In this document: positions 3,796 to 64,000 of the stretch, one piece after another
Layout: every line of letters starts with the position of its first letter
Position numbering within the stretch: position 1 is the first letter of the stretch
The notes under the pieces: generated by a model
Database searches by the model: none
What the model saw: only the letters and a program-made list of their open reading frames with translations
Told to the model about the DNA's origin: nothing
IMG/VR virus record: IMGVR_UViG_3300043398_000057
DNA length: 64,000 nt
Strand: one strand, 5' to 3'
Origin: a virus
Position numbers and translations under genes: made by a program

Positions 3796-4702
3796 TGATG
3801 TTCCCCATAAAGTTGTCCAGACCCATGGTGACGAAAAAGTTCATCATTTTCATGGTGTTTTTCTTCTTTCCTTGATGTGAGGTGTACTGGTTCACGATTC
3901 TCTCACGAATCGACACGGGAATCTTGGCGAAGTCTACCAAAATTTGATTTCTCATGAACCTTTGCTTCTGAATATCGTCTTCAAAAGGTAGTGGTTCACC
4001 AGCCATCATCTTTTCATAGAAGGTGTCGATCAACTTTTGTGAAACTGGTGGTTGTCGCTTTTCCTTTGTAACAAACTGATCATCAGGGGACTTGAAATTC
4101 GGAACACCGTCACCTTCATCACCTTTCATGATCTTTGTCAACAAATCAAGTTTTGGGCGTTCAGAAACAATCATGGTGTCGTCACGCTTTGAGTATTGCT
4201 GAACATTTTCGTGAACTTGCAGAGACTTGTAATCATGGTCAGAAGACACGATCAAGATAGATTCAGATTGCTCGAACACACCGCGCATTTGAACCGTGTT
4301 TTTGGTGATATAACGGGTCAAAACGCCGATACCATCATCAGCTTCAGCCTTGTCATCTCGAATCGCAATCCATGGAAGATACTCATTCACATCATCATGA
4401 AATTCATTCAGGTACTGATTGAACAGATTCCAATTGATTGCTTCCGTCTTGCGCTTTTCTTTTCTGGCAGATTTGTAATACTCGAAAACATCGTTACGCC
4501 AAGTGTTGCTACCATCAACACACATAACAATTTGTCCGAAGTCTTTTGAAAACTTTCGGTTGACGTTAAGCATTTGACTCAAGATGTGACCATAGAGGTA
4601 TTTCTTGGTTTCATCATCAGGTTTACAGAACGATGCCTTTAGGTATGGGTCAGCGTGTAGACTCGCAACCGCTAGACCGTTGGTGTCCACAAGAATTGTC
4701 AT
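3785..4702 (-). CDS. rnh: T4-type RNase H (5'-3' exonuclease)
   Basis: WR..F..YK..R, EADD, SSDHD, GDEGDGVPN motifs. Confidence 0.9.
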   Translation of the reverse strand: MTILVDTNGLAVASLHADPYLKASFCKPDDETKKYLYGHILSQMLNVNRKFSKDFGQIVMCVDGSNTWRNDVFEYYKSARKEKRKTEAINWNLFNQYLNEFHDDVNEYLPWIAIRDDKAEADDGIGVLTRYITKNTVQMRGVFEQSESILIVSSDHDYKSLQVHENVQQYSKRDDTMIVSERPKLDLLTKIMKGDEGDGVPNFKSPDDQFVTKEKRQPPVSQKLIDTFYEKMMAGEPLPFEDDIQKQRFMRNQILVDFAKIPVSIRERIVNQYTSHQGKKKNTMKMMNFFVTMGLDNFMGNINEF

Positions 4703-5037
4703 TTTGGCGTGATCCCCAAAGCCTTGTCAGACTTGTTCATGTGATACTTTTGCAAAATGAACAGCAAGCAGCAAATCGCATGGGCGGCATGGTGCTTACC
4801 AGATTCTTCATCAAGTTCGATACCATCCAACATATCAAGAATGTGACGCAAAACAGCGTCATCATAACGATAGTCTTCAACGTTCATGTAGTTGCCACGG
4901 GCGTACTTTGCTGCACCCATTTCAAGCACATCAATAACGTCACGAAATGCCGCGATGAGGTCTTTCAGAATCTATGTGGGGCGAGGCTTGCCGCCATCAA
5001 ATTTAATGCCACCAAGCTCGTTCTTAGGCGTTTCCAT
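4699..5037 (-). CDS. dATP/dGTP diphosphohydrolase-domain protein (DUF5664-like), one in-frame TAG
   Basis: GIKFDGGKPRPT*ILKD..GAAKYARGNY..DAVLRH..ESGKHHAAHAICC; TAG at 4972-4974. Confidence 0.8.
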
Positions 5038-5047
5038 GGTCTTCCTT

Positions 5048-5605
5048 TCAGAAAATTGATCCCTTGAATGTCCGACACAGAATGTCGGCTTGCGCTTTCA
5101 CATGCGCAACGGGATCGTTTGGGTTGTTGTATTGATCTTGCTTCACTTTGTTGACATTGATGCCAGCCAGTGATGTAATCGTGAGCATATCATGAAACCG
5201 GTAAAATGGTGCAGGTTCAGCCAAACCCAAGATTCGATATGCGGTCAAGATTTGACCTGCATGAGCATGTGAACCATGCGTCCAGATGCAAGGATTCTTG
5301 AACTGACTGACCCATGAGGTGAAATCGACCAAAACCTGAATGAGTTTTCTTGGATTGGTTTTCAGAAACTTTTTGTATTCAGGGTCGAAACTCTTCCAGT
5401 ATTCGATAGTCTCAGGGTCAAAGTGAAAAACCGAACGATCAATACTTCGAGGGTCAACAGCCGCAACAAAACAATCATCACTGATCGAATTCATTGTAAA
5501 GTGACACGCTGCAATATGCGCAATCGCGGCATTACCAAGCAACGAATATGTGTCAACCTTCAGCATTACATGATCTTGTTTTTCATCCATTCTGTAATTC
5601 CTCAA
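5048..5605 (-). CDS. DexA/DUF5051-like 3'-5' exonuclease fold protein, catalytic residues degenerate
   Basis: Overall layout (T..YW, IWTHG, RFHDMLT, D..AHVKAQA) matches the family; DxE motif replaced by KVD. Confidence 0.55.
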   Translation of the reverse strand: MRNYRMDEKQDHVMLKVDTYSLLGNAAIAHIAACHFTMNSISDDCFVAAVDPRSIDRSVFHFDPETIEYWKSFDPEYKKFLKTNPRKLIQVLVDFTSWVSQFKNPCIWTHGSHAHAGQILTAYRILGLAEPAPFYRFHDMLTITSLAGINVNKVKQDQYNNPNDPVAHVKAQADILCRTFKGSIF

Positions 5606-6063
5606 TAAAAATCTTCATCATCAGGGGCCACATAAAAGTATTCATGTGGGTCACACTCATACAAAATTGCTTGGAACACTGCGATTCTATCATCTTTTCC
5701 CTTCAGATTGAGGTACTTGCATGTCTGGTTTGCCAGCACGAAACGGTTGTAGAACTTCTGCGATGTGGTTACGATAAGATTCACATCATCAAAATTTCGG
5801 AATGTGACGAAAATCATTTCTTCATCCCATTCCTTCGCGTGTTCATAATCGTGATCCGTACCAATCGGATAGTCGTAATCATCATCCAGAACAGAATCTT
5901 GAAATTCTTCAAACTTGTCTTCTTTGACAAGCACCAAAATGTCGGTGTCGCTTTCTTCAATCGGTGGCGGTGGACTCACCGATGTTTGAGAACCTACAGC
6001 AGAGATTTGAATGATGTATTCACCGTGTTTCTCAAGAATTTCCTTCATGTAAATTTCATGCAT
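5602..6063 (-). CDS. putative minimal nucleotidyltransferase
   Basis: VGS...SDTDILVLV pol-beta-like motif and NLIVT strand. Confidence 0.55.
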   Translation of the reverse strand: MHEIYMKEILEKHGEYIIQISAVGSQTSVSPPPPIEESDTDILVLVKEDKFEEFQDSVLDDDYDYPIGTDHDYEHAKEWDEEMIFVTFRNFDDVNLIVTTSQKFYNRFVLANQTCKYLNLKGKDDRIAVFQAILYECDPHEYFYVAPDDEDFY

Positions 6064-6074
6064 ATATCAACCTT

Positions 6075-6722: not shown

Positions 6723-6744
6723 TGTAGCACAAGTTCAGAAGATT

Positions 6745-7571: not shown

Positions 7572-7832
7572 TCAGGAATTCAGTGCGCTAGAGGTCTTAT
7601 CGAGGGTCGAACCCGGGCAGTTTGCGTGCATGTGCTTTAGCACATCCTTGAAACCATCGGGAACCTTCAGACCACCAGAACCGGCCACAATTTTGATAGG
7701 CGTCACAGTCTTGAAAATTTTTCCACCACACTTTTGGCAAGGTGTTTCACAAGGCTTTTCTCGGTTTGAAATTGATTGCAGATCATCAAAAACATTGTCA
7801 CATGATTCACATGCATAGGTGTACAGCGGCAT
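7572..7832 (-). CDS. FmdB-family zinc-ribbon protein
   Basis: MPLYTYACESC...PCQKCG. Confidence 0.85.
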   Translation of the reverse strand: MPLYTYACESCDNVFDDLQSISNREKPCETPCQKCGGKIFKTVTPIKIVAGSGGLKVPDGFKDVLKHMHANCPGSTLDKTSSALNS

Positions 7833-9394
7833 TAACTCTTTCTCCATTTTCCATTGATGATTGTAACCAATTGTCGCTTTCCGTTGTTGTGGATAATGCA
7901 GTTTGTATGTAACCAGCTTGATGGGCCAGTCAAATACTCCAAATCCATTCTACTTAGAGTGCCAACTTGGAAACAACCATTTTGAATACCGGGGGTATGC
8001 GAGTGACCGATAATCAGTTTATCACCAATCTTAGCCAGATTTTGAATACTGCCTCTCGCACCATTGGGACCACTGTGACCATGAAGACCACATTCGATAC
8101 CAGCGATATTCACAGAACCATTTGAGAATTCGATGTTGCCACAAATTCCCTTAGATTCCCAAAGAGTGTCACGGAAAATTTCAAATGCAGACTGCGACTT
8201 ACCAGTTTTCTCAATTTGCTGAAGTTTTGTGTACATCAGGTAATGGTAGATTTTCGCATTCACATAGTCATTTCGAATGTCAGCACTATTCAACCACTGC
8301 TCAACATGGTCATGGTGATTCGATGAAACGATAATGGATTTTGAGAATCTTGGCGTTGTCATTGCAAGATGATCCAAAGTCAGTCGCATTTCTCGTTCAA
8401 TCGAATTCATTCCAGAACTCATGTTCTTGGTGAACCGGGTGAAGAAATCATTGTTGTGCCACTTGGAAACACTGTAGGAATCCAGAACATCATGGCGAAC
8501 AATGACTTGAGGTTTCAGAACGTTCACCATAGATTTCTTATCGAAGAACGTTGCATCAGCGGCCTTTTCATCTGAGAACAAAACGTGTTCATCACCACAG
8601 ACCAATGCGGCAACACTACACTTCGAACCATTGCTTGTTTCATCCCATCGTTCATCAAGGTCATAGAACCCGCCTGTATGGTCAGCAAACAGTTGTCGAA
8701 GGTGGAAGGTACTACCTTCATCAAATTCGATTGCAACAGCCGCAAAACAATGATGGAAAGAGGCTTGATAACCAGCCTTTGATGCCGAATAGTTGTTCTT
8801 GGATGAAATACTACCAGTTGAATGTAGAATGATAGGTTCATTCCATGGATTCACCGGCAGAGACTTCATCTGAACAACCGAATGCCCGACGATTGTTGTA
8901 ATACCTTCACACAGCTTATCAATACCGGTCAGAGGGTGGGTTGCGGTCGCTTGAATGTTGCAATCGCCAATGATCTTGAACTTATCTTTCCATCGAACAG
9001 TTGTATCAAGAAAATACTTTGTGGCGCGGGTAGGCCAAGTTTTACCACCATCCTTGTGCATGGCGGAAGGGTTTTGATACTTGATAGGAATCACAAACAG
9101 TTTGAAGTTTTTGCGTTTGCAAAACTTCTCAAGGTTTGTCAAAAAGCTATCATTGATGGGCGTGTCATTGATGCAAGATGTTACAACAATACCACGATAA
9201 GAAGGATAAGCATACTCAAAGTCAACAGAGGGAAGAATCGGGTTAGATTTGTTTGCAACTTCTCGAACAAACTTCTTATCGCTTTTTGTGACATGGTTAC
9301 ATTCCTCACATTCATAGTGGTGCTAACTTTTCTTACCGGCGAACCGTGGGCCGATATATCGTGTTTTGTATGATCCACAACTTTCACACTTCAT
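7832..9394 (-). CDS. T5 A1-like metallophosphoesterase/nuclease with N-terminal Zn ribbon, one in-frame TAG
   Basis: GDEH, HDVLD, SNHH, HGHSGPNGARG, GHSHTP, GPSSW; N-terminal CESC..CEEC reached through TAG at 9323-9325. Confidence 0.65.
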
Positions 9395-9457: not shown

Positions 9458-9715
9458 TCAGTCCTGATACAGACAAATCAATCGATAACGATTGTAGGTA
9501 ACACGACGACCCGAACGAACCTTGGTTACCGGTTCAGAAATAATGTTGAAACCATCAACAATGCAACGCTTTCGCAGACGACAAATTTCAGCGGTGGGCT
9601 TTTCAATCTTGAACTGTGCCCGAATCTGTGCAGAGGTAAGGGGTCGATCCTTCAGTGCCAGATACAGGCGTTCGATCTTTGCAGTCTTCTTAACGGTCTT
9701 GGTTGTCTTGGTCAT
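9458..9715 (-). CDS. small basic putative HTH protein
   Basis: LTSAQIRAQF..PTAEICRLR wHTH-like pattern. Confidence 0.5.
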   Translation of the reverse strand: MTKTTKTVKKTAKIERLYLALKDRPLTSAQIRAQFKIEKPTAEICRLRKRCIVDGFNIISEPVTKVRSGRRVTYNRYRLICLYQD

Positions 9716-10146
9716 GTAGATTTCCTTCTATAAGTTTTGTAATCGATGCCAGCTTCGATAAGCATCGAGATTGAAAAATCAGGGTTCCAACGTTCGGCAA
9801 ACTCTGGTTCGGGCTCATACCACACAACGCGAGAAATGCCACTCTGAATCAGCATCGATGTGCAGTTTGAACATGGTGGATGGGTGATATAGATTGTAGC
9901 ACCCTCAACCGATGTTCTTGCAGTGAGTCTAGCATTCAATTCAGCATGAATTACGGTCTTGTATTTGATTTCTCGGGTTTCAAGATACCTTTCATCATCT
10001 AACCCGGATGGAATACCGTTGAAACCCTATGAAATGATTCGGTTATCCTTGACAATGGTAGAACCAACTTGTGTTGAAGGGTCTTTCGACCACGACGACA
10101 CAAGTTGTGCCATCTCAAGATACCGTCTATCCCACTTTTCAGACAT
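9712..10146 (-). CDS. cd: dCMP deaminase, one in-frame TAG
   Basis: WSKDPSTQVG..IIS*GFNG..HAELNA..PPCSNC; TAG at 10027-10029. Confidence 0.9.
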
Positions 10147-10643: not shown

Positions 10644-10826
10644 TCATTCCTTTTCTTCGATGATTGGGATTTGCGGGTCTTCAGCCAAAATATCATCAAT
10701 TTTGACAACGCCTTCGATTTTCTTACACACATCACACTGAAAACCAATGTAGATTCCTGTACCTTCTTGAAAGGTACAGATTCTACCATTGTAACGGTTT
10801 GTGAGATGTGCTAACCAGTGGAACAT
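10644..10826 (-). CDS. small putative metal-binding protein
   Basis: 60 aa with CDVC, coupled to neighbours. Confidence 0.45.
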   Translation of the reverse strand: MFHWLAHLTNRYNGRICTFQEGTGIYIGFQCDVCKKIEGVVKIDDILAEDPQIPIIEEKE

Positions 10827-11500
10827 TACTTCTTCCTTGCTGCAACCTTCTTAGCTGGAACCTTCTTTGATGCAACCTTCTTCGCGGGTGCCGCAGATTG
10901 AAGCAGTTCCATAGCTTCGAAGTATTCCTTACGCTTTTGCAAACGTTCAATGATTTGTTCAGCATCAAACCAGAATTCCATACCCATGATGACCTTTTCA
11001 ATTTCGTCTTCTGAGAGGAAACCTTCATAAACCTCATGCACGAACTTGTTGACCCACTTGTTCGAGAATGAGGCGTATGCGTTGATGTTGTTGTCGGTAC
11101 CACCATAGCCGTGCGATGCGGTATGGATCATCATTGTAGCACCGGGAAGAATGATTTGTTCGTCACATCCCAAAAGAATCATGGAACCGGCAGAGGATGC
11201 CGAACCAACATGAATGCCGCGAATGTGCGCTTTGGTGATAGCCATCGCATCAAGAATTGCGCGGCACGATTCCATCATACCACCGGGGGTGGCAAAGAAC
11301 ATGTCAACTTGATCACTCTCAGTCGCAGAGTAAAGAAAGTCAAGCAGTTTTGAATACTGCATAACATCCACAATGGGACCATAGAACCGTGCCTTGGCAA
11401 CGTAGTTCGTCAGTGGAATCTACTCAAGCTCAAATGGCACCCGCGTTTCATCTTCATCAAGATCGATTTCGGTCTTTGGAGTTGTCTTTTTGGTTGTCAT
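10826..11500 (-). CDS. ClpP-like protease, one in-frame TAG, Lys/Ala-rich C-terminal tail
   Basis: ATPGG, ASSAGS, MIH motifs; ATG 11500 with AAGGA RBS; TAG at 11420-11422. Confidence 0.8.
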
Positions 11501-20903: not shown

Positions 20904-21524
20904 TTATTTGTAGTTTTTCAGCTACATTTCAAAAAGTTTCTTTCGATGATCAAGACCGTTCAGACCACCATTGATCTTCTTTGTCAACGCTTCAATGTTT
21001 GATGCCAGTGGCGTACAGTTTCGATCTTTCCAGAACCAGATTGCCGAATCGCAAGCACCCTCAATAGTCTTCAAGAATTCAATAGTTTCGTCAACGGTCT
21101 TACCGCGATACTTTGCGTAAGCCTGAACGTTGAACTTCCCGGTCTATTGAATGAAACCTCTACCAAGGTACTTTGAACCGTCACCAGAGGCTTCGTCACC
21201 ATTACCCATACGATTTGCATACACACGGTTTGCAATCTCTCTAGGCTTTCTGGCGTACTGTTTGGCCTAGCTTGGGGTGAAATACTTCCCAAAGGTCTTC
21301 AACAGACCTTCTTCCGAATAGTTAAGATTCTCGCTCATGTACATGAACCCACCGGACTCATGACCGACTTGCGCCTAAAAAGCACACATCACAGTTTTGT
21401 CATCAAGACCATTCAGAACAAGCAAAGGGTACATCGATGCCGAAACATCAATCAACCTTTGCTTGGGGATATCTGTAAAAACCGTGATCAACAGTTCTTC
21501 AAAAAGTTTTTGGTTCATACTCAT
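20904..21524 (-). CDS. endolysin, glycoside hydrolase family 19, four in-frame TAG codons (absent from the ORF track)
   Basis: Manual translation: AF*AQVGHESGGF..ENLNYS..ANRMGNG..SGDG.KY.GRGFIQ*TG..A.WFW..TKKINGG.NGL..R; TAGs at 21375, 21267, 21144, 20922. Confidence 0.9.
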
Positions 21525-37144: not shown

Positions 37145-38083
37145 TTATTCTTCGGGGTAGTCGTGATTACGCAACAGTTGGCGAAGTTGAACCCAACGCC
37201 GGAAGTTACCGCTACACGGAATCGAGAACAGACCCTTAGAATCTCGCTTGATGTGGGTCACACCAGCATCAGTGAAATCCTGAATCGGGGTGCCCTGGTG
37301 TTCAGCGGGTGAGCTATGCGAACGTTCTTCAGTGCGCACCGGTTGATCAAGGTGCAGCTTCTGAGCAATGTCATCAGCCTTTTCAACAGAAGTGTCGTGC
37401 TTTCGATAAGAAGTCTGTGCGCAACATGACATGGAAATCTTCTTCGCGGTTTCCAAATCGATAACGTCACCACGTTCATCAAAGAAAACTTGCTTACCTG
37501 CAACGAATTGTTGATTCACATATGGAAGGTGCCATTGACCGGGCTCAAGCAGAACCGGTTCAGAATTGTTCAAAGCGGTTTCCATGAGGTGCGCCAGATA
37601 GTTAAATTCCGGTTGCGCGGCATCATGATTGCGAAGCCAGAAAAAGTTCTTCCAATCGGTTGCGGTCAGAACCATCTTTTGCATCATGATGGGTTCCAAG
37701 AATCGCCCGGCAAGTTGCTTGTGGAACTTCTTCTGATCAAGAATGGTGGCAGCGTCGATACAGTTGCCAACAAGCACACGCCAAATAGCTTTCACTTCTT
37801 CAAGTTCTTCACCTTCAAACTGATCATCGGCACTCATGCCGGGCTTGTTGATACCCCAAAAGTTAGGTTCAAAGTAATTGCCATTTCGAATGTTTTCAAT
37901 TTGCTTGGCAAGCGGAATTGCGCGAGAACTCGAACCATTCTTAGAAACCATCTTGTGCGTGTTCTATTCGGCCAAAATCGGGCGAGGGAACTCGACTTCG
38001 TATGTAACCAGCGGAACGCCAATACGCGAAATCGAATGAGCAATGATGTTTACAGAAGTCTTGTTAGGATGAAAGTTACGCAA
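37145..38083 (-). CDS. thyX: FAD-dependent thymidylate synthase ThyX, one in-frame TAG
   Basis: PRPILAE*NTHKMVSKNGSSSRAIP, HKQ...RFLEP, FFWLR...AQPE, H.SP.EHQ.TP; TTG start with GGAG RBS; TAG 37964-37966. Confidence 0.88.
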
Positions 38084-38420: not shown

Positions 38421-38505
38421 TGGTACCCCCGGTCGGAATCGAACCGACACGCCTTTCGGCGGCGCTTTTAGAGAACGCTGTGTCTACCAATTTCACCACA
38501 GGGGC
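38421..38505 (-). tRNA. amber-decoding tRNA, anticodon CUA, tRNA-Leu body
   Basis: Anticodon arm GCGTT-CT CTA AA-AGCGC, long variable arm, A73, encoded CCA; about 81% identical to tRNA-Leu(CAA) at 39617-39701. Confidence 0.93.
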
Positions 38506-38532
38506 ACACGAACTCTATTGTACCAGAAATTT

Positions 38533-38991: not shown

Positions 38992-39504
38992 TCACTTTTT
39001 TAAGAAGTAACCTCTTTTCGGAACCTCAATATCAAAATGTTGACACCACTTTTTCACGGTTACGTCTGACACGTTGTAAATGCTTGCTATTTTTGTCATT
39101 GGCATTTTCCAAACTATATCAGAAAGTTCTTCTTTTGTTATTTGAAACTTTACTCTATCATCACTCGCACATTTTGGTGAACAATACTTTTGTTCACTTT
39201 TGTTAGTTACCTCGAAAGAAACTTTGCACTTTGTACATGCACGATATTCTTTGATTACGTTCTTATCTTCTCTATGGTGTAACGCTGCATGTTCCGAGTT
39301 TGTCATTAACATCAAATTGCTAATATGATTGTTTTTCCTATTTCTATCAATATGATGTACACACTCGTCTGGTAGCAACAGTCTACCAATATGCTAACAC
39401 ATTACATAAACATGTTCCATGACTTTACCTGCACCGTTAGCATAAATGCTTTCCGGATTATAGCAATACATGTAACCTGTTCCAACATCTTCTCTAAAAA
39501 TCAT
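38992..39504 (-). CDS. free-standing HNH homing endonuclease, one in-frame TAG
   Basis: EHVYVMC*HIGRLL..ECVHHID.N.KNN..SNL..EH..LH, CxxC/YCS..C, C-terminal HTH; AT-rich; TAG 39394-39396. Confidence 0.8.
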
Positions 39505-39616: not shown

Positions 39617-39701
39617 TGGTGCCCCGGGTCGGACTCGAACCGACACTCCTTTCGGAACCGGATTTTGAATCCGGTGCGTCTACCAATTTCACCACCGGGG
39701 C
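39617..39701 (-). tRNA. tRNA-Leu(CAA)
   Basis: Anticodon CAA, long variable arm, A73, CCA. Confidence 0.95.
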
Positions 39702-45600: not shown

Positions 45601-47031
45601 AACAAATCTGACGGTGTTTTTCGGATATTGTTCAAAAGCATGGAATGCATAATCATATGCACTCTTCGAACTGTAATAGTATGACGAACGATAGAAATAC
45701 TTGTTGACCCCCTTTGAGTTTCGTTCTGTTGAAATGTTGTACTCATATTTTGTTGCCTTGAAATATGCATCAAAAAACTTCTTGGCATTATCCTTATCGG
45801 CGTTTGCGATGGCATCATTGATTTTGTAAGAGTATTTGTACATGTCATCATTAGCGTTGATGTATTCCAAAAACTCTGTAACATCAACACGCTTGGCAAC
45901 CTTATCAAATTCACCATTGATCAAGTTGACAAACATGTTCTTCATTTGCAATGGCGTAAACGATGATGGCGCGGCCAAAGTCTTACTACCCTTTGGTGCA
46001 CGACCGCGTTTTGCCGGTGCTGTAGCAACCGGTGCCGGTGAGGGAGTTGCAACCGGTGCCACAACCGGTGCCACAACAGGTGCAACAGGTGCCACAACCG
46101 GTGCAGCAACAGGCGCGGGAGTAGGTGCAGGCGTTGCAACGCGAGACACAAACGGTTGCGAGAATTGCGAAACGGGCGTAACCAATGGTTGAACAATTGG
46201 ACGAACCACGGGCTGAACAACGGGTGCTGTAGGCACAACAGTGGCAACAGGTTGAACAATTGGACGGGGCGGGGTCACAACCGGTGCTGGAACTGGTGTG
46301 GGTGCCACAACAGGTGCCGGTGCTGGAACTGGTGTGGGTGCCACAACAGGTGCCGGTGCTGGCGTGGGCGCAGGGGTTGCAACCGGCGCAGGCGCGGGCG
46401 GAGTCACACCAGCTTTAGGTGTACCCTTGGGACCAAGTTCACCAACAATCTTAGGGTCATACGAATCGAAACCGTTTGAGCCAACATAGTGAGTTGCAAG
46501 CCGCTTAAATTCAGCAGCAACCTTTTGACGAGCCTTAGAGTAGCCTTGAATGTCTTGCCAAACAAGAACACCAACTTGTTGAATGCTGTATGTGCCGGTG
46601 CGCCACTTGGTGAACTGATTCTTCAGAATCGTCGATGGTTTGAAATCCGGATCACGCAACATTTCCTTTGCAAGACCGCGCAAAATAGTTTCATCAATTT
46701 GACTTGACGACAAGTTGCCTTGCTTGATCTTGGCGAACAGAAGCGTGAACTTGTCGGCCAGAACCCGACTCATAACACCACCTTCAACAGCCAGCTTCAC
46801 CGACAGTGAAATGTCATTGTTTGCGTCACCAATGTTGTCAAACCGAATCGACTTGTCATTGATGAAATAGTTCTTAACAGCGTGACCACCTTGAGTATCA
46901 CCAATGGCATACAGACCAAGAATGCCAAAAATGTTGATAATCAGTGCATCAGACTATTGTTGCTTGTCGGCAACCAATGCATCCTTTTCTTGGGCATTGG
47001 TGTAAAAGGTGTTTTCATACAAACGTTTCAT
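42694..47031 (-). CDS. large Alt-like ADP-ribosyltransferase (about 1445 aa), one in-frame TAG
   Basis: PARP-like FHG..I.RYGF..GKML..GIY...DKS.QY..PEY near the C-terminus; ATG 47031 with GAGG RBS; TAG 46954-46956. Confidence 0.7.
46010..46410 (-). repeat. Pro/Ala/Val/Thr low-complexity coding repeat
   Basis: PAPAPVVAPTPV-type repeats inside the Alt-like gene. Confidence 0.85.
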
Positions 47032-47567: not shown

Positions 47568-49286
47568 TTACTGACAAGCCTCACAAATTTTTGGTTCGCT
47601 TGATTCTTGTGCAGCGTCACCATCTCGTGTTGAGTAGATGTAGTACAAACCCTTACAGTATGGATCGTTAATCGCTTGGCGGTGCAGCTTAACAATATCC
47701 CGTGGATTTGCATTACTAGGGATGTACAGGTTCAAACTCTGACCCTGATCTTCATAGCGTTGACGCGCCGATGCCAACCGAAGATGTGCGCCCATATCCA
47801 TCTCAAACGCAGTCTTGAAAACCTTCTTTTCATGGTCAGACAGCCAATCAACATCTTGAACCGAACCACGGTTTGCACCAATCTTCTTAAGAATCTCTGG
47901 TTTGTGCTTACCACGTTCTTTCATGATCGCCAACAGATATGGATTAACGCGATGAACCAATCCAGCGGGAGTAGTCTTGGTGAAAACCATAGCGGTATCG
48001 GGGTTGATACCTTCAGACACACCACCCATGATTTCGGCGGTTGACTTTGTTGGCGGATTCATCAAACGTGTCGCGTTACGAATACCAAGACCCTTACAGT
48101 GCTTAGGTTCACCCAAAATGCTTGCCAGCCACTTCGTTGCTTGCATAGATTCTTCATCAAAATGCTTTGCAATCTCAAGGTTCAGAATGTGGGCTTCAAG
48201 CGATTCAAACGGAATCATCTTACTCATGAACAGCGAATGAAGACCCATCTTGCCAAGACCCAATGCACGGAAATCTTCGGCAAACTTGACAGACTTTTCA
48301 AAACCGGGCACGCCACGGGCAAGTTCAATGAATTCTTGGTTAATGCAATCCAAGAAAACGGTCATCCAGAAAACAGCCTTGTTCGTCTTGATCTTGTCCC
48401 AATGGATCAGATTGATAGACGACAGAACGCAAACAAAGTTGTATTCTTCGGGGTCCGATGGCAGACACACTTCGATACAGAGGTTACTTGCGCGGATTGG
48501 ATAACCCGAACGCTTAATAGCTTCTGGTGCAAGTGCATTAGCCTTGTCAATAAAGAAAATGTAACCCTTACCGTAGGTCATGCGCAGTTTCATGATTTTC
48601 TTGAAACGACGATTCGCTTCCTTGTCACGGGAATTCAGCTTGTCGATGAACGTTTGTTTGAAAATCCAGCCCATGTTGAAATCATCGGGGGTTTCGTTCA
48701 GGAATGTCCAAACTTCATCAAAGTCGCCATGTTCAACATCAAGATAAAACGCGCATGAACCTCGACGGGCGTTACCTTGCGAAACATATGTCATGTCATG
48801 AATAATGCCAGCAATGATTGGCATCACACCTTCCGCCTTACCACCAATTGAAATGGGGGTGCCACGACAACGGATTCCACTCAGGTCAACGGAAGTGCCG
48901 AAACCCTTCTTCGTGTGCATTGCCAAAAGATGCTTGGTACTGTAGATGCCATCAATGCTATCGGGTGGCACAGCACCCATACAAGAAATCGGATACCCAT
49001 TTGTTGTACCGGTATTACTCAGAACAGGGGTGGAACCACTGAAGATGCCTTCCCAAAAGAAATTGAAAAAGTTTTCGTATGCCTCTTCGCGATATTGTTC
49101 GGGGAGATGCCTTGCAGCAGTCTTTGAAATTCGCTTGTACTGATCCTTAACGTTTGTAACGCCATTCAGATACTTCTTTTTGAACTATTGCCAACCGGCA
49201 GTGTTCCACCATTCTGGCATTGTTGCATCAGCTTGCATCTGCTTTCGTTCTTCTGAAAGCAGTTCATATTCAGTTTTGTCACTCAT
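47568..49286 (-). CDS. nrdA: ribonucleotide reductase class Ia alpha subunit, one in-frame TAG
   Basis: STPVLSN, PISC, QG..RRG, SNLCIE, C.LSS.N, PT.ST, QGQSLN, terminal CEACQ; TAG 49185-49187. Confidence 0.93.
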
Positions 49287-49292
49287 TATTCA

Positions 49293-50309
49293 TTACTCCA
49301 ATTCTTCATCGGCTTCAAGATAATCAAAATCGTCTTCAATCCACTTACGGGTATATTGCGAACCGGTAGCGTTGAAAAAGTCAATCACGTTGTAAGAGTT
49401 AATGTCATCATAGAACCATTCCCGGATAGGGTTGTAGGTAACGACAAACAAACTCTTCAGACCCAAATTGTGCAGACACTCATTCAAGCGAGACTTAACA
49501 AAGTTCTTCAGTTGAGTTGCGGTGATGCCCTTGATCGGACCCTTATCGAAGATTCTATCAGCAATGTAGGCTTCGTGTTCATAGATCGTTTCGGCAACAG
49601 CGTACAACGCCCGTTCGATATCTTCGCGCTTACCGTAACGTTGCTCAAGAATGCCATCTTCGATACAATCATTCATCAAATGACGGTAGCCGGTTGCACC
49701 AGCCAAACTATGAATGTTTTCGTCAACCAAACTGAAGTTCACGCCCGCAACAACGTTCTTCGCATCCGACTTACCGTTAGCTTGAAAGTGCTTGAGATAA
49801 GCAAAACTCGAATAGAGAATGGCACCCTCAACCATCGAGAACGCGCCAAGCGAAACCTAATCATTTTCGTGGTTGACAATCGAATCAATGAAATCCATTC
49901 TGGCCTTGAGAACAGGATCATTTGCATATTCCTCATAAAATTCATCAGTATCAAGACCGAAAATCTCATTGATCTTCTGATAGAAAGGCTTATGAATCGC
50001 CAACTCGAACGCTGCAAAGGTTGTACCCATGCGGGTAAACTCTGGACCCTTCATGATCTTGATGAAACGATTTGACCAATACTCTTCACCGGCAAACATT
50101 TCGTACTTGGTGAACAGCTTCAGGGTGTACAAAATGCCATGACGGGAAGATTCCGGCATTTCCACCATGATGTTTTGCTTATCCTTGTGCAACTTCACTT
50201 CTTCGGGCTACCAAGTGCCCGCAAGTTGCTTGTTTGTAAAATGTTGACTGTACTGAGGAAACGCCTCAACAATTTTACCTCTTCGATCTTCGTATGCCCG
50301 TACTTTCAT
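49293..50309 (-). CDS. nrdB: ribonucleotide reductase class Ia beta subunit, two in-frame TAG
   Basis: W*PEEV, FT.YE, E.AIH..FY, D*VSLGAFSMVEG..LYSSF, DENIH, DFF; TAGs 50208 and 49857. Confidence 0.93.
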
Positions 50310-51751: not shown

Positions 51752-53269
51752 TCATTGTAGCACAGGAAGGTTGATCAGTTTCGTGGTGAAATCATGTTGT
51801 TCTTCGGCGTATAACGTGACACGTTTACCAAAGTGATCCATACCAAAATTGACGACAACGGATTTCCCAATTTTCACTGACATATCATCAGCAATGTCAT
51901 ACAGGTTTGTCATGTTCTTACCGACCTTGAGTCTCAAAAGACGACCAATCGATTGAATGATGGTGTTACCAGACTTCATCGGATGGGCAAAGATCAAATT
52001 CTGCAAATTGGGGATGGACAAACCGGTTGAAAGGGTTTGGTAGTTGCTCACAATGATGCAGTCTTCGTTGTTGGCAATCTTGCGAATACTTTCCTTTTCT
52101 TCACTTGTGTTATCGCCAGTGACAAGGTAAACAGGCTTCTTAGAAATTTTACACAGTCGCTCATAAATGTAATCAGACTGCTTTTCTTTGAATCGAGTTA
52201 AAATCAAAGTGCAACCACTCAGCGCATTTGCCATACCACAAATCATGTTATTGCGGTTTCGGTTTGTAACAATGTAGTCAATCTCGGTTTCGTACTCGAA
52301 CTTTTTCTTCTTACCACTGACATTGACCAAACCCTTAACAATTTCAGGGTCATGCTTGACAACAATGCATTTGATAGTGATGGCGGTTGCCTTACCACTG
52401 TCAATCAGTTCTCGCGTTGTGGTTGTCTTGTGGATGTAACCTGTGATTGCCCGAATCACCATTTCGTTACACTTGGTTTCCTTGAGTGAACCGGTGAAAC
52501 CAAGACGCCATGCAGCATTGTGACAATTGTTAGCGATTGATTGAATAGACTTGCTGGACGCTTTGTGTGCTTCATCCAACATCTATGCACCATATTGCGA
52601 AAAATAGTCACTGTCTTCTTTACTGATCGATTGATAGGTAGAAACAATGATTCGCTTGGTGGTGTTCTTGTCTTGACCGGCAGTAATCTTGTGAAGGTTT
52701 GCAGAAACATCAAACCCATTGTTTCGGCTGTATTCAATGAAGTCAGTTTCCATCTGTGTCACAAGCGCAACAGTTGGCACGACCAAAAGAATTTTTGCAT
52801 CAGTGACATTAAGTAGATGCCGAATGATGGTATAGATGATCAGTGACTTGCCCGATGATGTTGGAGAATGGAACAAGACTTTCTGACTGTTGATACCGTC
52901 AACAATCGCGTCAATCTGGTAGTCATAAACCTCGATGGGAACACCCTCACGCATGATTTTGAAGTCTTTACACAACTGCACAACTTCTTTTCGTGTGGTG
53001 ACTGCAAGGTTTTCACCAAAACCATCGAATGTGTATTGAACACCAAGTTGTTGCAAGGCTTCTTCGATGTTGGTCAACAGACCAGAACCAAAGTTTCCGT
53101 ATGCATCAACACATGAGATGGTACCATCCCAAACCTTAGCCTTGAATCGTGGATGATATTTGTAACCATCAGCGAAGAAACAAAACTTTTCCTTCAACTT
53201 TGAAATGACCAAAGAATCTGCGCCCTTGACTCGGTAAACAGCCTCTGAGCGTTTTTGAATAACTGCCAT
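51752..53269 (-). CDS. uvsW: UvsW helicase, one in-frame TAG
   Basis: PTSSGKS, STYQS, YGA*MLDEAH, GFTGS, QSIGRLLR; TAG 52583-52585 joins two ORF-track fragments in frame. Confidence 0.93.
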
Positions 53270-53718
53270 CAGTTCACACCTTGTTGGAACTTTTGCCAGT
53301 CAATCACAGACCGCAAAAGATATGTTCGATTGTTGATTTCCTTGATGATGGATTCGCAACTTTTGATAAGCGTTTCCAAGTATTGCACCCGATTCTCGAT
53401 CTTCACGACTTCTGGATGGGCAGAAATCTTTTCTTCCATCTGAGTCTTCAGAGGTTTGTTGAATCTGTACTGATCCCACCCGCGCAAGCGCAGTTCATCG
53501 GTGTTCATCTCACCACTGTAATACTTGGTCAGTGCAACCTTCAGTTCAGAGTATTTCACAACATACTCACGTTGCTTGAGCCTGTAGTTTTGAAGGATTT
53601 TGATGTACTTGGAGTGAAGAATTGGGCAACGGTAAAGTTCACCCAAAACGTCAGTCTGATCCATTGCGCAATCAGTCTCCCATTCTGCCATCAATTCGTC
53701 ATGTTTAACAAGTTCCAT
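53269..53718 (-). CDS. uvsY: UvsY recombination mediator
   Basis: D..D....P.LHSKY, YYSG, R..I.W.KF..G. Confidence 0.88.
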   Translation of the reverse strand: MELVKHDELMAEWETDCAMDQTDVLGELYRCPILHSKYIKILQNYRLKQREYVVKYSELKVALTKYYSGEMNTDELRLRGWDQYRFNKPLKTQMEEKISAHPEVVKIENRVQYLETLIKSCESIIKEINNRTYLLRSVIDWQKFQQGVN

Positions 53719-54152
53719 TATGCAATCACTACGTTGTTACTCCGAACAGTGATTGTAGCAGTGATTGGGTCACTTTGACTTTGGGTGTTGAAATTTATTC
53801 CGGACAACGCTTGAGGGATGCAGTCTTGAGCATTCAGTACAAAAGCAATTTTCTTGCCACTTGAGTCGATACCAAAAATTCTAACATCACTGTAACGATC
53901 ATTCCCACTCTGGAAGTCTTTAATCCACCGATACACAGCTTTGTAATTCTCATACGATTCATCAACCATGAAAGTCATGGAGAAACCATCGGGATCAACG
54001 ACTTCACCCGGAAGCGAAACATTGAAATTTGGAATCTGCACTTCGGCACTGTTGAGGTTCAGACCCGGAGTTGTGAACTCGGTCAGAGTGAACGCAACTT
54101 CAGGCTATGCCGAAAATTGAACTTGGAACCTGTTGTTGAAAGCGTAATTCAT
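53718..54152 (-). CDS. 3: gp3-like tail tube terminator, one in-frame TAG
   Basis: FQVQFSA*PEVAF..PG..F.VDE..NY..Y.W; TAG 54105-54107. Confidence 0.75.
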
Positions 54153-54160: not shown

Positions 54161-54427
54161 TCAGTTAGCGAAAACGTTGTTAGAACCTGTTGAAACTGTG
54201 TGACCGCAATTGACCGCATCACCTTGACGAACGACCCGAATGCCTTCAGCAAACACGTTTGGAGATGCTTCTACAATATTCAGTGGTTGCTCATGATTTG
54301 GGTGGTCATCAACCTTGTCACCAAGTGTGGAAACTTTGGAACCGTTGACAAACACAGTGCTTGCCCCGGGTCCGATGATGACGCCACCATTCACATTGTC
54401 AACATTAACTCTGGCTACTTTCATCAT
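54161..54427 (-). CDS. PAAR-domain spike tip protein (gp5.4-like)
   Basis: VFVNG..GD..H..S.NVF.EG..R.GD..CG..GS.NVFAN. Confidence 0.85.
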   Translation of the reverse strand: MMKVARVNVDNVNGGVIIGPGASTVFVNGSKVSTLGDKVDDHPNHEQPLNIVEASPNVFAEGIRVVRQGDAVNCGHTVSTGSNNVFAN

Positions 54428-54956
54428 CACTTTCATAGAAGTCTTCGAGACTGCTATTTACTTTCGACTTGTTTTTCTTCTTACTGTCGCGCTTATTCTT
54501 GAGTCTGGTGTATTTGTCCGAAAGCACTTCATTGATTTTGATGGCTTCGTTAATTTCGTCAACAACATCTGTATCACCTTCGATATTCAACGAATTGCCA
54601 CTTGCATAAATCAGTTCCATCTTACCGAACTCTTCATTTTCTTCCTTTTTGATGAAGTCAACATATTCGCGCCATGCGGTTGTTGTGAAGTAGCCAAATG
54701 GATTAGGAGACTTTTCGGGATCGAACTTGTGGGCGACACTGAAACACTTCTAAATCGCTTCCCCCACCATGTCATCACGGAATGAATAACCGTTGAAGTT
54801 GTGACGGGAAGCTAGGTTCTCGCAAATGTCAATGATGGCCTTGCCAATGTCATTGGGCATCGTAGGGAAATCCGCAAAACTTTCCTTGGTCAGACACTCC
54901 GCACGGTAAGCCCTCAGACTTTCAACCAACTTTTGCTTATCAACATACATGCCCAT
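54405..54956 (-). CDS. 55: gp55 late-transcription sigma factor, one in-frame TAG
   Basis: YVD..L, IG..I..I..L..NF.GYS.RDDM.GEAI*KC..FDP..S.NPF.YFT; TAG 54750-54752. Confidence 0.9.
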
Positions 54957-56286: not shown

Positions 56287-57042
56287 ATGGCAGAACGTTC
56301 AACTTATGTAGACTTGAACTTCGAGAAAGTTAGTCAAATCGTTAATGCGAGACTGCATAACGTAACAACAACTCAGAGAAATTCTTAGGCTGCAACGCTT
56401 GGTGCAACCAATGAAGGTTTGATTGTTTACGATACCGATGAAGACCAAATTTACGTTTGGAACGGTACCACATTCATTCCGACTAAGGTACAAGGTGCCA
56501 TGACCTATAAGGGTACCGTCACAAGCCTTACAACCGCGCCAGCGGGCTTTGATGTTGGTAGCACATACGTCTTCACCGGTACACCCGGCACTTTGACTTG
56601 GGCGGGTCAATCGTTCTCACCATCGGCCAACATTGAAGTTGGTGACATTCTGATTTATCGTGGCTCAAACACATGGGACATTGTTGAGGGTAACGACATT
56701 GCCGCAACCGAAACCGTTGCCGGTAACGTTACGCTTGCTACCCAAGGTGATGTGAACAATGGTACCGGTAACGGTGTTGTGACCGCTACAACCCTATCAG
56801 CATTTGTCAATGCCCGCAAGCTGGCTAAGACATATTTCGCAACGGTTGATCTTGCTGCACTGACGCCATTCACGGTTTCTCATAATATGGGATTGTCAAA
56901 TCGTGATGCATTTGTCGTTAGAACCGCAACGTCAAACGGCTCAGAAGTTTCTTTTGATATTGACTCTGTTGACACAAACAGTTTTACGGTAACTTCTGCG
57001 GTCGCGTTGACCGGTGTGAAAATCTTCGCAACCGGGTTCTAA
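56287..57042 (+). CDS. tail fibre/adaptor protein, one in-frame TAG
   Basis: ATG 56287 with GAGG RBS; TTTQRNS*..GLIVYDTD..VWNG; TAG 56386-56388. Confidence 0.75.
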
Positions 57043-57045: not shown

Positions 57046-57693
57046 ATGGCGGATACCTTTTTCAGTCCTCCGCTATTTGCGGAAACTACTGATACATCTA
57101 GCCCACCATCAGGGTTTCAAAAGATTCAGGCAAAGCCTGATGGTCGGCTGTACGGTAAGAATTCTACTGAAGAATATGAGATTGGTAAAGCAATTTCTGT
57201 TTTTGATGAATCAACACTGATCACATCACGGCTTGGAACAATTAAATTTGCAGGCGCGTAGGTAACCGCGAATGATCCGGTTGAAGGTGACGTTGTTGTT
57301 ACCTCGATTGGTTTGCAATCTATCAGTACCAGATATTTCAACCCCGGTGACAACACAACACCAATTTTACCGGGAACTGTTGATTTTCTTGCCGGGCAAA
57401 ACAATTTGATGATTGAAGGTGGTAGTGGTGTAGCGATTAGATCGTTCCCCGGAACTTCGCCAAGAATTGTTTTGAGTATTTCGCCACATACAAACGAAAC
57501 TCTATCGCCCGATCCACATCCACAATATCTTTTGAGAACTGATTACACTGGTGGGCAATCTTCTGGTGGTGTTCCAACTTTTATGACAAGCGATTTTGTG
57601 GTTGCTGCTGGTACGCAAGTTCTATTTTCCGAAGAAATTGATGGTGACAATTTCGAGATTCAAATTGATGGTATTTTGACTGAGGTACAATAA
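57046..57693 (+). CDS. tail fibre-associated protein, one in-frame TAG
   Basis: Two ORF-track fragments in frame across TAG 57259-57261; DPHPQYL fibre motif. Confidence 0.7.
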
Positions 57694-61506: not shown

Positions 61507-61603
61507 TTCACTTCAAGAAGGTGGGTTTGTGCGGTAAGTATCAAAAACCATCAATTTGGAACACTTATGACACATCTGACACATAACAGGGAGAACAGAA
61601 TTT

Positions 61604-61969
61604 ATGGCTAAACCAGAATTCCGGGTTCTCAAACCTTCCGGTACGTTGTCTCGATACTCTGGTGAAGATATCAGAGTTTTGATCACAGCAAGTACATCAT
61701 CCTTTGTTTTGCCAAAAGGTGCACAACTTGGTGCACAAATCACAATCATCGCAATTGAGAATGTCGCGTTCACAGTATATGGCGACAACTATAGCGGAGA
61801 ACGTTCAATTAGTCTGAGTCGCGGGCAAACCGCACAGTTTGTTTTTCTTGGCTTTGAGTGGTTGTAGGTTCAGGTCAATACAAGCGTTGAACTGATTGAT
61901 AATGGTAATCTAATGTTCGATCTTAGTCAAATTAGCTTTGACGGTGATCTAATCTCTTTCAGCGAATAA
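61604..61969 (+). CDS. small tail protein, one in-frame TAG
   Basis: VLP..G..I.I..SL..GQ..F..W beta motif; read-through of TAG 61865-61867 fills the gap to the next gene. Confidence 0.6.
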
Positions 61970-61987
61970 TTCTCAGAGGAATATAAA

Positions 61988-62563
61988 ATGCTCAAAATCA
62001 AAAATTCAAGCGGTCAATGGGTAGATTTTACGCCAGCACAGAAAACCCAATTTATTAACGATATCGGTGCTGTTCAGACTGTTAATAATCAGGCTTCCGA
62101 TGCTTCCGGTAATGTCACAATCACATTTCCTATTCTTGATAATTTGACTGCTGGTGGTACCGGTAGTGCACTGTCTGCCGAACAAGGTAAGGTGCTGAAG
62201 GGTCTTATTGATGCTAATACCAACAACATCACAGACAATACAAATGCTATTTCCGGTAAGGCAGACACGGTTAAAGTTGTTGTGATCAACGCAAACGTTA
62301 CGATTACGCCTGCTAACCAGTCAACATATAACGGAAATTTGTTGGAGTTTTCTGGTGCCTTTACGGTCACTATCAGCGGTGGTTTGGCAAACGATTTCGG
62401 TTTTGCTGCTATTCCTCCTGCAACTGGTAACGCGACTATCGCTAGCGATGGTACAGCAAGTTTGAATGGTGCGACAACTTCTATTACTCGCGCGGCAAGT
62501 ACAACTCCGATGTTTGGTGTTCAACAACGCGCATCAAATCGTAACTCTTACGTTGTTTCGTGA
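61988..62563 (+). CDS. short tail fibre protein
   Basis: N-terminus similar to 59659; ALSAEQGKVLK fibre motif. Confidence 0.7.
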   Translation: MLKIKNSSGQWVDFTPAQKTQFINDIGAVQTVNNQASDASGNVTITFPILDNLTAGGTGSALSAEQGKVLKGLIDANTNNITDNTNAISGKADTVKVVVINANVTITPANQSTYNGNLLEFSGAFTVTISGGLANDFGFAAIPPATGNATIASDGTASLNGATTSITRAASTTPMFGVQQRASNRNSYVVS

Positions 62564-62578
62564 TTTAGGATTTTTAAT

Positions 62579-64000
62579 ATGCCAATTCCATCATTTACTT
62601 TGCGGCACATTGCCGCCGCTGCCCGTAAACTCATTCAAACAACAATTGCACATGGTATTAACGTTGCCCGTCCGGACTACTTTTCATCATTTGGTATGGA
62701 GGCTCAACCAGTTATCACAGCATTGAACAATACGCCAAACTTGAATGCTCAAGGGTGGCAGATTATTCCTGCTGGTGGTGGATCAGCATAGCTTCCTGTT
62801 GTTAATGAGACTGACTGGATGAAACCCCGTCCCGGTCGGTACGTTATTACTGTTCCGCCAGGACTTGCGTGTAGACTTGAAGTAAACGGTTCCGTTGTTG
62901 CCCCGCAGGGTTCGGCAGTAACGAGTGTTCAATCTACTGTAACCCCGGCTGGTCAATTTACTTGGTCCGGTGCCAATAGTGATACAAGACCAAGTGGAAC
63001 CACACCAATTAGAATTGAATTTGACTACTCAGGTCGCCCGGGTGATACAACAGTTGGTCAGGAAGGAATTTTCTGGCAAAATGGTACCGGACTACTTCTT
63101 TCGGTTCGTAGCACTGATGGTGTTGCACATTCTTTTAGCGAAATCAAGTTTTACCATATTGACGATGAAGCTGATGTTTTGGCTGGTAATAGATGGTCGC
63201 AGTGGGCTATTAACTACTATACACCATCAAATCCTAAAGCCCCGCTACGCTTGCTTGAATTGACGTATCCTATGCAACGATGGGTTTCAGAACCATCTCA
63301 TATTCCTGCTGCTGATTATGTTGGACCAACGAGCCCAAATTTTCAAACATCTGGTACAACAATTTCTGCTCATGCTACACAAAAAAGCCGACTATATTCG
63401 CCAGAATCTTAGGCAGAGTTTGGTAATAGGGCAAACAGAGATATTTGGGTTTGTTTGTGGCCTATGGCAACGGATGAAACATTGACACACTTTTTTAATC
63501 GTCTTTTTGCTGCGTTGAATCCAAATCTAAAAGTTTATGTCGAGTTTTCAAACGAGTGGTGGAACGGAGCTTTCCTGCAAAATAGCTATTACCTTGAGAA
63601 CCAATACACAACAGCATTCAACAGCGGAAACGCAAATTCCAACAAGTCTCGCGAACGTGGATTGAACACTGCTCATGGAAGTCTTCGTTCATGGGCCATT
63701 GCAGAATCAATTTTTGGTCGTAGTCGTGTTGTTCGAGTGTGCAACGCGCAGGGCGGTTATTACGATATGAGTCGTCATTTCTACGAGTTTGTCGATCCCG
63801 GGTTTATCCAATCTGGTGCGCGTGCCGGTGATCTGTGCGACTATATCACGATGGCTGGTTATTTTTATCGTACCACTGATGAACAACTTTCTTCTACATG
63901 GTCAAGTCTTTCACTTCCCGGGGTCGCACCACAAAGAAATACTGACACACTCGGACCAAATTTTACCAAGAAATTTTATCTTCGTTCAATGTTTATCAAC
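62579..64000 (+). CDS. tail-associated glycoside-hydrolase-like protein, two in-frame TAG, runs off window
   Basis: PES*AEFGN..DIWV..A.D..L.PNLKVYVEFSNEWWN; TAGs 62789 and 63410. Confidence 0.65.

Follow-up and report, generated by a model that had tools for sequence, protein, structure and literature searches.

A T4-like phage whose in-frame TAG codons are very likely decoded to leucine by its own tRNA-Leu(CUA)

Known stop reassignments and the phage studied here

Among phages whose code is unlike the host's, Borges et al. (bioRxiv 10.1101/2021.08.26.457843) report no change other than TAG to Gln and TGA to Trp; stop-recoded phages with a suppressor tRNA of their own are described as TAG=Gln (code 15; crAss-like, Lak and others) or TGA=Trp (Borges et al.; Cook et al., PMC11210395; Peters et al., PMC9523058). 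That summary, also given by a first-pass annotation of the DNA analysed here, must be widened, as phage UAG=Ser has been reported besides Gln, with Ser- or Gln-tRNA(CUA) (Ivanova et al. 2014, per review PMC4695839). TAG=Leu is known from eukaryotes, not only in green-algal mitochondria, as that annotation had it (NCBI table 16, the chlorophycean mitochondrial code, with TAA and TGA as stops), but also in the nuclear codes of Rhizaria sp. exLh and phyllopharyngean ciliates (PMC11687900, PMC10553269). The phage papers we searched report TAG only as Gln or Ser, and queries for TAG, UAG or amber to leucine in phages returned only ciliate and chytrid papers from the open literature (subscription journals lay outside the search); the claim that TAG=Leu is undescribed in phages thus met no contrary report. 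In E. coli, the leuX CAA-to-CUA change (supP) inserts Leu efficiently at UAG in competition with RF1 (PMC7969014).

Here we analyse 64,000 nucleotides (the window) of an uncultured T4-like phage of 43% GC, in which TAG is very likely an infrequent seventh codon for leucine within essential genes, decoded as Leu during infection by a phage-encoded tRNA-Leu(CUA) (probability about 0.9). No peptide or RNA data are available, and incorporation is inferred from sequence. As in described stop-recoded phages, intact genes carry in-frame ambers, a CUA tRNA is phage-encoded, reliance on a host synthetase is apparent and a lysis gene seems rich in recoded codons; unlike in code 15 phages, the amino acid is Leu and the tRNA derives from tRNA-Leu(CAA). 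Code 15 and TGA=Trp phages further differ from this one in that its TAGs are thinly spread (about one to a gene), 5′-biased and present also in replication and nucleotide genes, in a T4-like genome of 43% GC. The phages of Ivanova et al. share a non-Gln amber meaning conveyed by a phage tRNA, but there the residue is Ser, described together with RF2, which was not found in this window. The meaning itself is that of table 16, to which our exchange, column and paralog data conform; table 16 and the nuclear codes, however, belong to eukaryotic cells or organelles whose whole translation system is adapted, whereas here a virus would impose the code on a bacterial host.

TAG codons inside conserved genes

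Genes were called with a self-trained model that left TAG open and could not end genes on it. The resulting 95 genes cover 90% of the window and contain 25 in-frame TAG codons, spread over 19 genes, with no internal TAA or TGA, confirming the count of the first-pass annotation; 53 genes end in TGA, 41 in TAA, and one runs off the window end. TAG accounts for 2% of Leu codons. Its first bases lie at 4974, 9325, 10029, 11422, 20924, 21146, 21269, 21377, 33619, 36098, 36218, 37966, 39396, 46956, 49187, 49859, 50210, 52585, 54107 and 54752 on the minus strand, and at 56386, 57259, 61865, 62789 and 63410 on the plus strand. Apparent TAGs at 13740-14264 and 23572-24141 were excluded as lying upstream of true starts, and a 26th TAG would exist if the gp48 start is farther upstream.

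On the minus strand, TAG-bearing genes of nucleotide metabolism and replication comprise a dATP/dGTP diphosphohydrolase domain gene (DUF5664; 4699..5037, codon 22), in which Pfam PF18909 spans the TAG, dCMP deaminase (9712..10146, codon 40), ThyX (37145..38083, codon 40), NrdA (47568..49286, codon 34), NrdB (49293..50309, codons 34 and 151) and the UvsW helicase (51752..53269, codon 229). Virion, late-expression and lysis genes comprise the GH19 endolysin (20904..21518, codons 48, 84, 125 and 199), the gp5 baseplate spike with its own GH19 domain (31193..33664, codon 16), a gp48-like tail-tube assembly protein (35388..36248, codons 11 and 51), a gp3/tail-tube-like protein (53718..54152, codon 16) and the late sigma factor gp55 (54405..54956, codon 69). 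The same strand carries a ClpP-like protease (10826..11500, codon 27), an HNH endonuclease within the tRNA cluster (38992..39504, codon 37), a 520-aa gene of the TAG-open set (phrog_1745; 7832..9394, codon 24) and a 1445-aa protein with no assigned function (42694..47031, codon 26). The plus strand carries a tail/fibre-like protein (56287..57042, codon 34), a 215-aa protein (57046..57693, codon 72), a 121-aa beta-sandwich protein (61604..61969, codon 88) and a protein of at least 473 aa that runs off the window (62579..64000, codons 71 and 278). Endolysin codon 199, five codons before the gene end, is ambiguous as a non-stop.

Homology spans the TAGs in otherwise intact conserved genes, which meets the criterion for a stop-recoded phage, and under table 11, 32% of coding bases would fall beyond the first TAG of their gene. 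Comparing stop sets by raw ORF coverage was uninformative, because shadow ORFs inflate that coverage. The earlier observation that no real gene ends in TAG also held, a separate gap search for TAG-ended ORFs in the window having found none that is gene-like. This is weak evidence and not diagnostic alone, because related standard-code phages avoid TAG stops too (1 of 134 genes in four comparison loci).

Errors of sequencing or assembly, or gene decay through nonsense mutation, are all but excluded as the origin of the TAGs. In favour of such an origin, base-level support comes from assemblies only and not from raw reads. Against it, the same TAG recurs at four sites in independently assembled sequences, namely in gp3 (L023, ENA ERZ27251563), the 1445-aa gene (L038, and L039 from SRR7686837), ClpP (L040) and nrdA codon 34 (L009, below); five new TAGs in L009 all stand opposite TTG; internal TAA and TGA are absent; a cognate tRNA is present; and purifying selection persists past the TAGs, with pN/pS of 0.05-0.17 on both sides compared to 0.11-0.13 in the TAG-free primase. 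Logan contigs of SRR35181283/4 encode proteins identical to those of the window, compared as protein only; because the calls are full-length in one and TAG-truncated in the other, they were left out as base-level evidence. No close relative emerged from IMG/VR scans with NrdA, UvsW, gp5, a 410-aa tail protein and the tRNA sequence, and a metagenome scan yielded only primases at about 30% identity.

The residue at TAG and the tRNA that would read it

The assignment to Leu, as proposed by the first-pass annotation, rests on codon exchange with a relative, homolog columns, a paralog within the window and a cognate Leu-type tRNA(CUA). The relative (L009, from SRR30451274) is 81% identical to the window in nucleotides, and all eight TAG exchanges between the two are with TTG, in both directions: three window TAGs are TTG in L009 (where NrdB codons 34 and 151 and UvsW codon 229 are TTG), and five L009 TAGs are TTG in the window. 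None is with CAG or any other non-TTG codon, and a ninth TAG, at nrdA codon 34, is common to both. Of the sense codons one step from TAG, 13% in this genome are TTG, which gives eight of eight a p of about 8e-8. A further TTG, the ninth, faces the ThyX TAG in a 70%-identical homolog (L041). That phage and the NrdB neighbours (L025, L029) use the standard code.

Homolog columns scored over eight TAG sites gave Leu +13.8, Ile -6.2 and Gln -18.6, with 55 of 58 control codons assigned correctly; the mean Leu share was 0.53 at TAG columns, 0.48 for true Leu codons and 0.02 for those of Gln, and the mean Gln share at TAG columns was 0.017. Leu is found at both NrdB sites (81/119 and 108/119), in ThyX (L64/119, V30, F14), at the first three endolysin codons (L83/120, L33, L98), in two homologs of the DUF5664 gene and, with Met, among NrdA homologs, while gp5 codon 16 is matched by Leu in T4 gp5 chains, Gln in one other phage and Met in BUCT-ZZ01. 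The claim that TAGs often occupy Leu or hydrophobic positions does not extend to every site: gp55 codon 69 (E77, L31, I11, V11 of 148), endolysin codon 199 (A68/L14), dCMP deaminase (I, V, T, T, H in homologs) and the variable HNH column (E/I/Q/L) are not Leu-dominated. Ordinary Leu codons average just 48% Leu. The GH19 domain of gp5, proposed earlier as an internal control, did serve as one, with Leu opposite each of the three endolysin TAGs that could be aligned (codons 48, 84 and 125).

The tRNA, which supplies the mechanism and had been overlooked in the first-pass annotation, places a CUA anticodon on an 85-nt class II leucine body (38421..38505, minus strand; ARAGORN; Rfam tRNA, 48.4 bits). 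With A73, A15:U48, G18G19, A20a, C2-G71, a long variable arm and encoded CCA, it meets bacterial-type tRNA-Leu criteria, the first five features being named Leu determinants or Ser antideterminants (PMC9976931). Outside the anticodon arm it is near-identical to a tRNA-Leu(CAA), which reads TTG (39617..39701, minus strand; ARAGORN, Rfam), and the two share a 3′ trailer; the latter is likely its parent or sister copy. Annotated tRNAs among 30 listed phage matches are all tRNA-Leu, and blastn against E. coli genomes gave no match. The cloverleaf rests on covariance-model alignment, as minimum-energy folding did not return it, and the tRNA evidence comes from the window only, the relatives' contigs stopping short of the site. 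ARAGORN labels the tRNA Pyl, by anticodon only.

A reading of TAG as Gln (code 15), Ser, Tyr or Pyl is therefore hard to sustain and all but ruled out. Gln is the usual phage amber meaning and a public protein (P0123) has Q at TAG sites, but this Q is a gene-caller assumption, none of the nine sites (L009 and ThyX) shows the TAG-CAG exchange expected under code 15, and Gln scores 32 log units below Leu. Ser is opposed by a Leu body with A73, G73 being the mark of Ser tRNAs (PMC9976931). Pyl has the ARAGORN label in its favour; a pyrrolysine system was rejected because TAG exchanges with TTG and the tRNA has the body of a class II Leu paralog.

The leucine tRNA is likely a natural counterpart of supP, with the same tRNA-Leu(CAA) body and CUA anticodon and, by analogy, charging by an anticodon-blind LeuRS and competition with RF1; supP, however, is an allele that serves as a suppressor in the laboratory, whereas the window's suppressor is a second gene copy needed by essential viral genes. 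In the mechanism we propose, the lineage already shunned TAG as a stop (shown for the comparison loci), a tRNA-Leu(CAA) gene was duplicated and one anticodon became CUA (paralogy is shown, the order of events inferred), and host LeuRS, blind to the anticodon, would charge the product with Leu (established for supP, inferred here). TTG and TAG, one transversion apart, then interconvert as synonymous changes, which is shown, and the CUA tRNA would compete with host RF1, probably with incomplete readthrough.

Alternatively, the host itself might read TAG as Leu or lack RF1, the phage tRNA being a supplement only, which we consider very unlikely. In its favour, the host is unidentified, essential genes need readthrough and the window yielded no anti-RF1 factor. 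The annotated proteins of the window include no identified release factor or synthetase, a point against the main reading, although many short ORFs were unscanned and the other 80 kb lie outside the data. Against this reading, a TAG share of 2% of Leu codons with 5′ bias fits competition with active RF1, recoding is not evident near the Leu-type CUA tRNA pattern on the four GTDB contigs that have one, and the bacterial stop reassignments known from PMC8629427 and PMC4695839 are of UGA.

TAG placement and its possible meaning

Fourteen of the 25 TAGs fall within the first 50 codons (6.9 expected, p=0.0007), a bias that remains on homology-spanned genes only (p=0.007) and recurs in L009 (p=0.034). 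TAG supplies 4 of 23 Leu codons in the endolysin (binomial p=0.001, uncorrected) and none of 386 in small-ORF blocks (p=1e-4, the blocks being picked after the fact), yet the longest TAG-free gene run is not significant (p=0.12), TAG-bearing genes are not fewer than at random (19 compared to 20.5) and a rule of one TAG per gene was rejected as not beyond chance. Clustering near starts and the endolysin load suggest that suppression is likely leaky, an inference from pattern. Incomplete readthrough would explain why TAG is rare and 5′-proximal, since a chain aborted early costs little, and would make gp55, virion proteins and the four-TAG endolysin depend on build-up of the tRNA, which may delay late expression and lysis; the pattern is shown, the cause inferred, and a timing role remains a possibility that has not been shown.

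A stronger variant accepts TAG=Leu and holds that the TAGs form a selected translational timer, a feed-forward gate via gp55 and the lysis gene and not a by-product of leaky suppression; we lean slightly against it. It is favoured by the 5′ bias in both phages, the TAGs of the endolysin and gp55, the enrichment of recoded codons in lysis genes per Borges et al. and the retention of TAGs, mostly at different sites, by uvsW, nrdB and nrdA in both relatives with none in primase. Against it, minimising the cost of abortive translation predicts equal 5′ bias, nucleotide-metabolism genes bear TAGs too, the number of TAG genes matches chance, and the CUA tRNA, with a host-type promoter-like element, is therefore probably made early. 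This element, an extended -10 match to consensus only (TGGTACAAT; 38517..38525, minus strand), starts 20 nt upstream of the tRNA, and the motif also precedes tRNA-Thr, tRNA-Leu(CAA), thyX and other genes. A canonical T4 late promoter TATAAATA did not turn up in the window, which left no promoter criterion for calling genes late. The joint claim, that a duplicated tRNA-Leu(CAA) gives the phage its TAG=Leu code and that sparse 5′-proximal ambers in late sigma, virion and lysis genes are a selected tRNA-dose timer, stays tentative, the odds falling a little short of even. If true, it would be the natural equivalent of a feed-forward circuit engineered with supP, and low-density recoding, missed or labelled Gln by current pipelines, may be widespread.

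Public protein sets already show both outcomes, with table-11 truncation in gp55 fragments (P0255/P0256) and ThyX (P0405) and Gln wrongly placed at Leu (TAG) sites by the pipeline in P0123, and code 15 calls in viral catalogues therefore need checking for the amino acid. The leucine reading lengthens the short list of amino acids that phages assign to stop codons, and it weakens the proposal that GlnRS and TrpRS lend themselves especially to repurposing. Anticodon-blind synthetases such as LeuRS would offer an easier route to recoding, because only one base need change in a duplicated tRNA, and the window displays the whole path: parent tRNA, derived suppressor and TTG-TAG interchange. The old idea of recoding as a lysis timer thereby becomes directly testable, as the tRNA should, by analogy, work in E. 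coli like supP.

In-frame TAG codons in a T4-like phage

Upon self-training gene prediction with TAG left open, we obtained 95 genes covering 90% of the window, among which 19 contain a total of 25 internal TAG codons and none contains an internal TAA or TGA. These results reproduce the first-pass annotation, which had counted 25 TAGs in 19 genes and had seen no internal TAA or TGA. It had also stated that none of the real genes it checked ends in TAG; this held as well. The gene set terminates in 53 TGA and 41 TAA codons, and a separate search of intergenic gaps in the window recovered no convincing TAG-ended gene. The lack of TAG stops is nonetheless weak evidence alone, because only 1/134 genes end in TAG in four standard-code comparison loci. 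In the DUF5664, dCMP deaminase, GH19, gp5, ThyX, HNH, NrdA, NrdB, UvsW, gp3 and gp55 genes, the TAG falls inside a family-profile or homolog alignment. Furthermore, the same TAG recurs in independent assemblies for gp3, ClpP, nrdA and a gene encoding a 1445-aa protein (codon 26; two samples), indicating that those TAGs are not errors of one assembly. The ratio pN/pS is 0.05–0.17 both upstream and downstream of TAGs, comparable to the TAG-free primase, which implies purifying selection along whole genes. In-frame TAG is confirmed in assembled sequence.

The window covers 64 kb from the genome of a T4-like myophage (43% GC), and its proteins were located on a 144,862-bp JGI contig. Its genes include gp46/47, gp5, gp53, gp48, UvsW, UvsY, gp55, primase, NrdA/B and ThyX, along with RNA and DNA ligases, fibres and six tRNAs; no close cultured phage was found (top matches: NrdA 52%, UvsW 39%). 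A PagP-like gene (24656–25051; lipid A palmitoyltransferase family, by PHROG match) is consistent with a Gram-negative host. In gp5 (31193–33664), GH19 and peptidase M15 domains replace the T4 lysozyme, and full-length similarity is seen only to gp5 of Synechococcus phage BUCT-ZZ01 (31%). The 1445-aa protein (42694–47031) lacks a Pfam match, and its sole PHROG match, near the C-terminus, is to an unknown family.

Residue identity at TAG sites

A contig from a relative of this phage (L009; Logan, SRR30451274) shares 81% DNA identity with the window from uvsY to nrdA. Three window TAGs are TTG in L009 (UvsW 229, NrdB 34 and NrdB 151), five L009 TAGs are TTG in the window (UvsW 20 and 417; NrdB 60, 103 and 194), and the two have TAG in common at NrdA 34. 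TTG accounts for 13% of this genome's sense codons that differ from TAG by one step, and the chance of 8/8 exchanges involving TTG is ~8e-8; the transitions CAG and TGG are absent from the window–L009 exchanges. The ThyX TAG site is likewise TTG in a 70%-identical ThyX of a standard-code phage.

We also scored eight TAG columns in GH19, NrdB, ThyX and gp55 alignments (119–148 homologs apiece), by a procedure that decoded 55/58 control codons correctly and that called Leu in at most 6/1000 draws of random 8-column sets of Gln, Met, Ile, Val, Phe or Tyr codons. Summed log-odds ranked Leu first (+13.8), followed by Ile (−6.2), Val (−8.5), Met (−13.0) and Gln (−18.6). Mean residue shares at TAG columns (53% Leu, 2% Gln) resemble those at true Leu codons (48% and 2%). 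Individual sites differ: Leu prevails at NrdB151 (108/119), GH19-125 (98/120) and ThyX (64/119), but gp55-69 (E77/L31) and GH19-199 (mostly Ala) lack a Leu majority; the first-pass annotation had noted that many TAGs fall at Leu or hydrophobic consensus positions. Outside the scored set, nearly every homolog has L or M at NrdA34, two homologs have L at the DUF5664 site, and T4 gp5 has L at the gp5 site. The internal control proposed in the same annotation held: the GH19 domain of gp5 places Leu opposite all 3/3 alignable endolysin TAGs.

The alternative of code 15, under which TAG is read as Gln, fails by the absence of CAG exchange, the Gln log-odds of −18.6 and the 2% Gln at TAG columns.

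A leucine-type tRNA with a CUA anticodon

At 38421–38505, the window encodes an 85-nt tRNA whose anticodon is CUA. It aligns without gaps to the phage's tRNA-Leu(CAA) (39617–39701), with differences chiefly in the anticodon arm, and the two carry an identical 3′ trailer past CCA, which points to gene duplication. Among 30 listed phage matches, every annotated tRNA is a tRNA-Leu. The CUA tRNA possesses A73, an A15:U48 pair, G18G19, A20a, C2-G71 and a long variable arm, features that in E. coli are leucine determinants and serine antideterminants, the anticodon not being among them (PMC9976931). Moreover, the same CAA-to-CUA change in E. coli leuX yields supP, which inserts Leu at amber codons efficiently, is charged by LeuRS and competes with RF1 (PMC7969014). 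Neither a synthetase nor a release factor was identified among annotated window proteins (a scope that excludes many short ORFs and the remainder of the genome). An HNH endonuclease gene inside the tRNA cluster (38992–39504) is AT-rich with foreign codon usage; its one TAG lies at a variable column and could have arisen as a tolerated nonsense change and not from TTG.

An extended −10 element, by consensus match only, begins 20 nt upstream of the CUA tRNA. The recurrent motif, TG(G/C)TA(C/T)AAT, is nearly confined to the coding strand, often 20–55 nt before genes (minus strand: 6729, 38123, 38525, 38631, 39755, 40084, 51762 and 53760; plus strand: 55161). The canonical T4 late promoter TATAAATA is absent from the window although the gp55 gene is present. 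Short upstream blocks, seen in translations, recur ahead of several small genes, at 14257–15213, 20421–20831, 40825–41199, 42364–42588 and 41527–41829 (for example, sequence common to ~20891 and ~42650, and to ~15264, ~40801 and ~41877), which suggests a duplicated promoter or leader element.

Deployment of TAG and comparison with known recoding

TAG accounts for 25/1254 Leu codons of the window (TTG 379, CTG 345, CTT 344, CTC 95, CTA 48, TTA 18). Against a null in which TAGs are permuted over the Leu codons of their own genes, TAGs are concentrated within the first 50 codons (14 vs 6.9 expected, p=0.0007) and lie early in genes (mean relative position 0.28 vs 0.485, p=5e-5). This 5′ bias persists in genes whose TAG is spanned by homology (p=0.007) and is seen in L009 (p=0.034; one site common with the window). 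In our reading, suppression would be leaky against host RF1, and ambers would therefore be tolerated chiefly where abortion costs little. In the endolysin, 4/23 Leu codons are TAG (p=0.001 uncorrected), and three blocks holding 47 ORFs, mostly short and unknown, have no TAG (0/386 Leu codons, p=1e-4, blocks picked post hoc); a run test on TAG-free genes gave p=0.12. A rival reading holds that the dependence of gp55, virion proteins and endolysin on the level of this tRNA was selected as a timer; we lean slightly against it.

Public protein sets hold these genes either truncated or with Gln (as in P0123, an entry for a window gene). Leu-type CUA tRNA sequences also occur elsewhere. One lies on an unrelated 61%-GC tailed-phage contig (L032:7241–7325; IMGVR_UViG_3300029288_001178), whose genes for terminase and portal lack any clear internal TAG. 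Four others lie on bacterial MAG contigs (L033:2180–2269, L034:1010–1094, L035:7272–7354 and L036:263–293; Planctomycetota, Limnocylindrales, Microbacteriaceae and Muribaculaceae) without evident recoding nearby, and could be natural supP-like suppressors or single-base errors.

The system works like that of recoded gut phages (Borges et al.; Cook et al.), but this phage fails the code-15 test. Borges et al. observed no reassignments other than TAG to Gln and TGA to Trp; for phages, UAG decoded as Ser and as Gln is cited in a review (PMC4695839). TAG=Leu corresponds to table 16 and has been described in mitochondria of green algae and in the nuclear code of a rhizarian and of some ciliates; no report of it in phages appeared in the literature searched (subscription journals were outside coverage). 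The first-pass reading of TAG as Leu is supported by TTG exchange, homolog columns, the gp5 paralog and the Leu-type CUA tRNA, and we consider it very likely (~0.9) that TAG is read as Leu through the phage tRNA, Leu incorporation being inferred without proteomic proof. Such a codon meaning would be new to phages, and the route by which it evolved is visible here.
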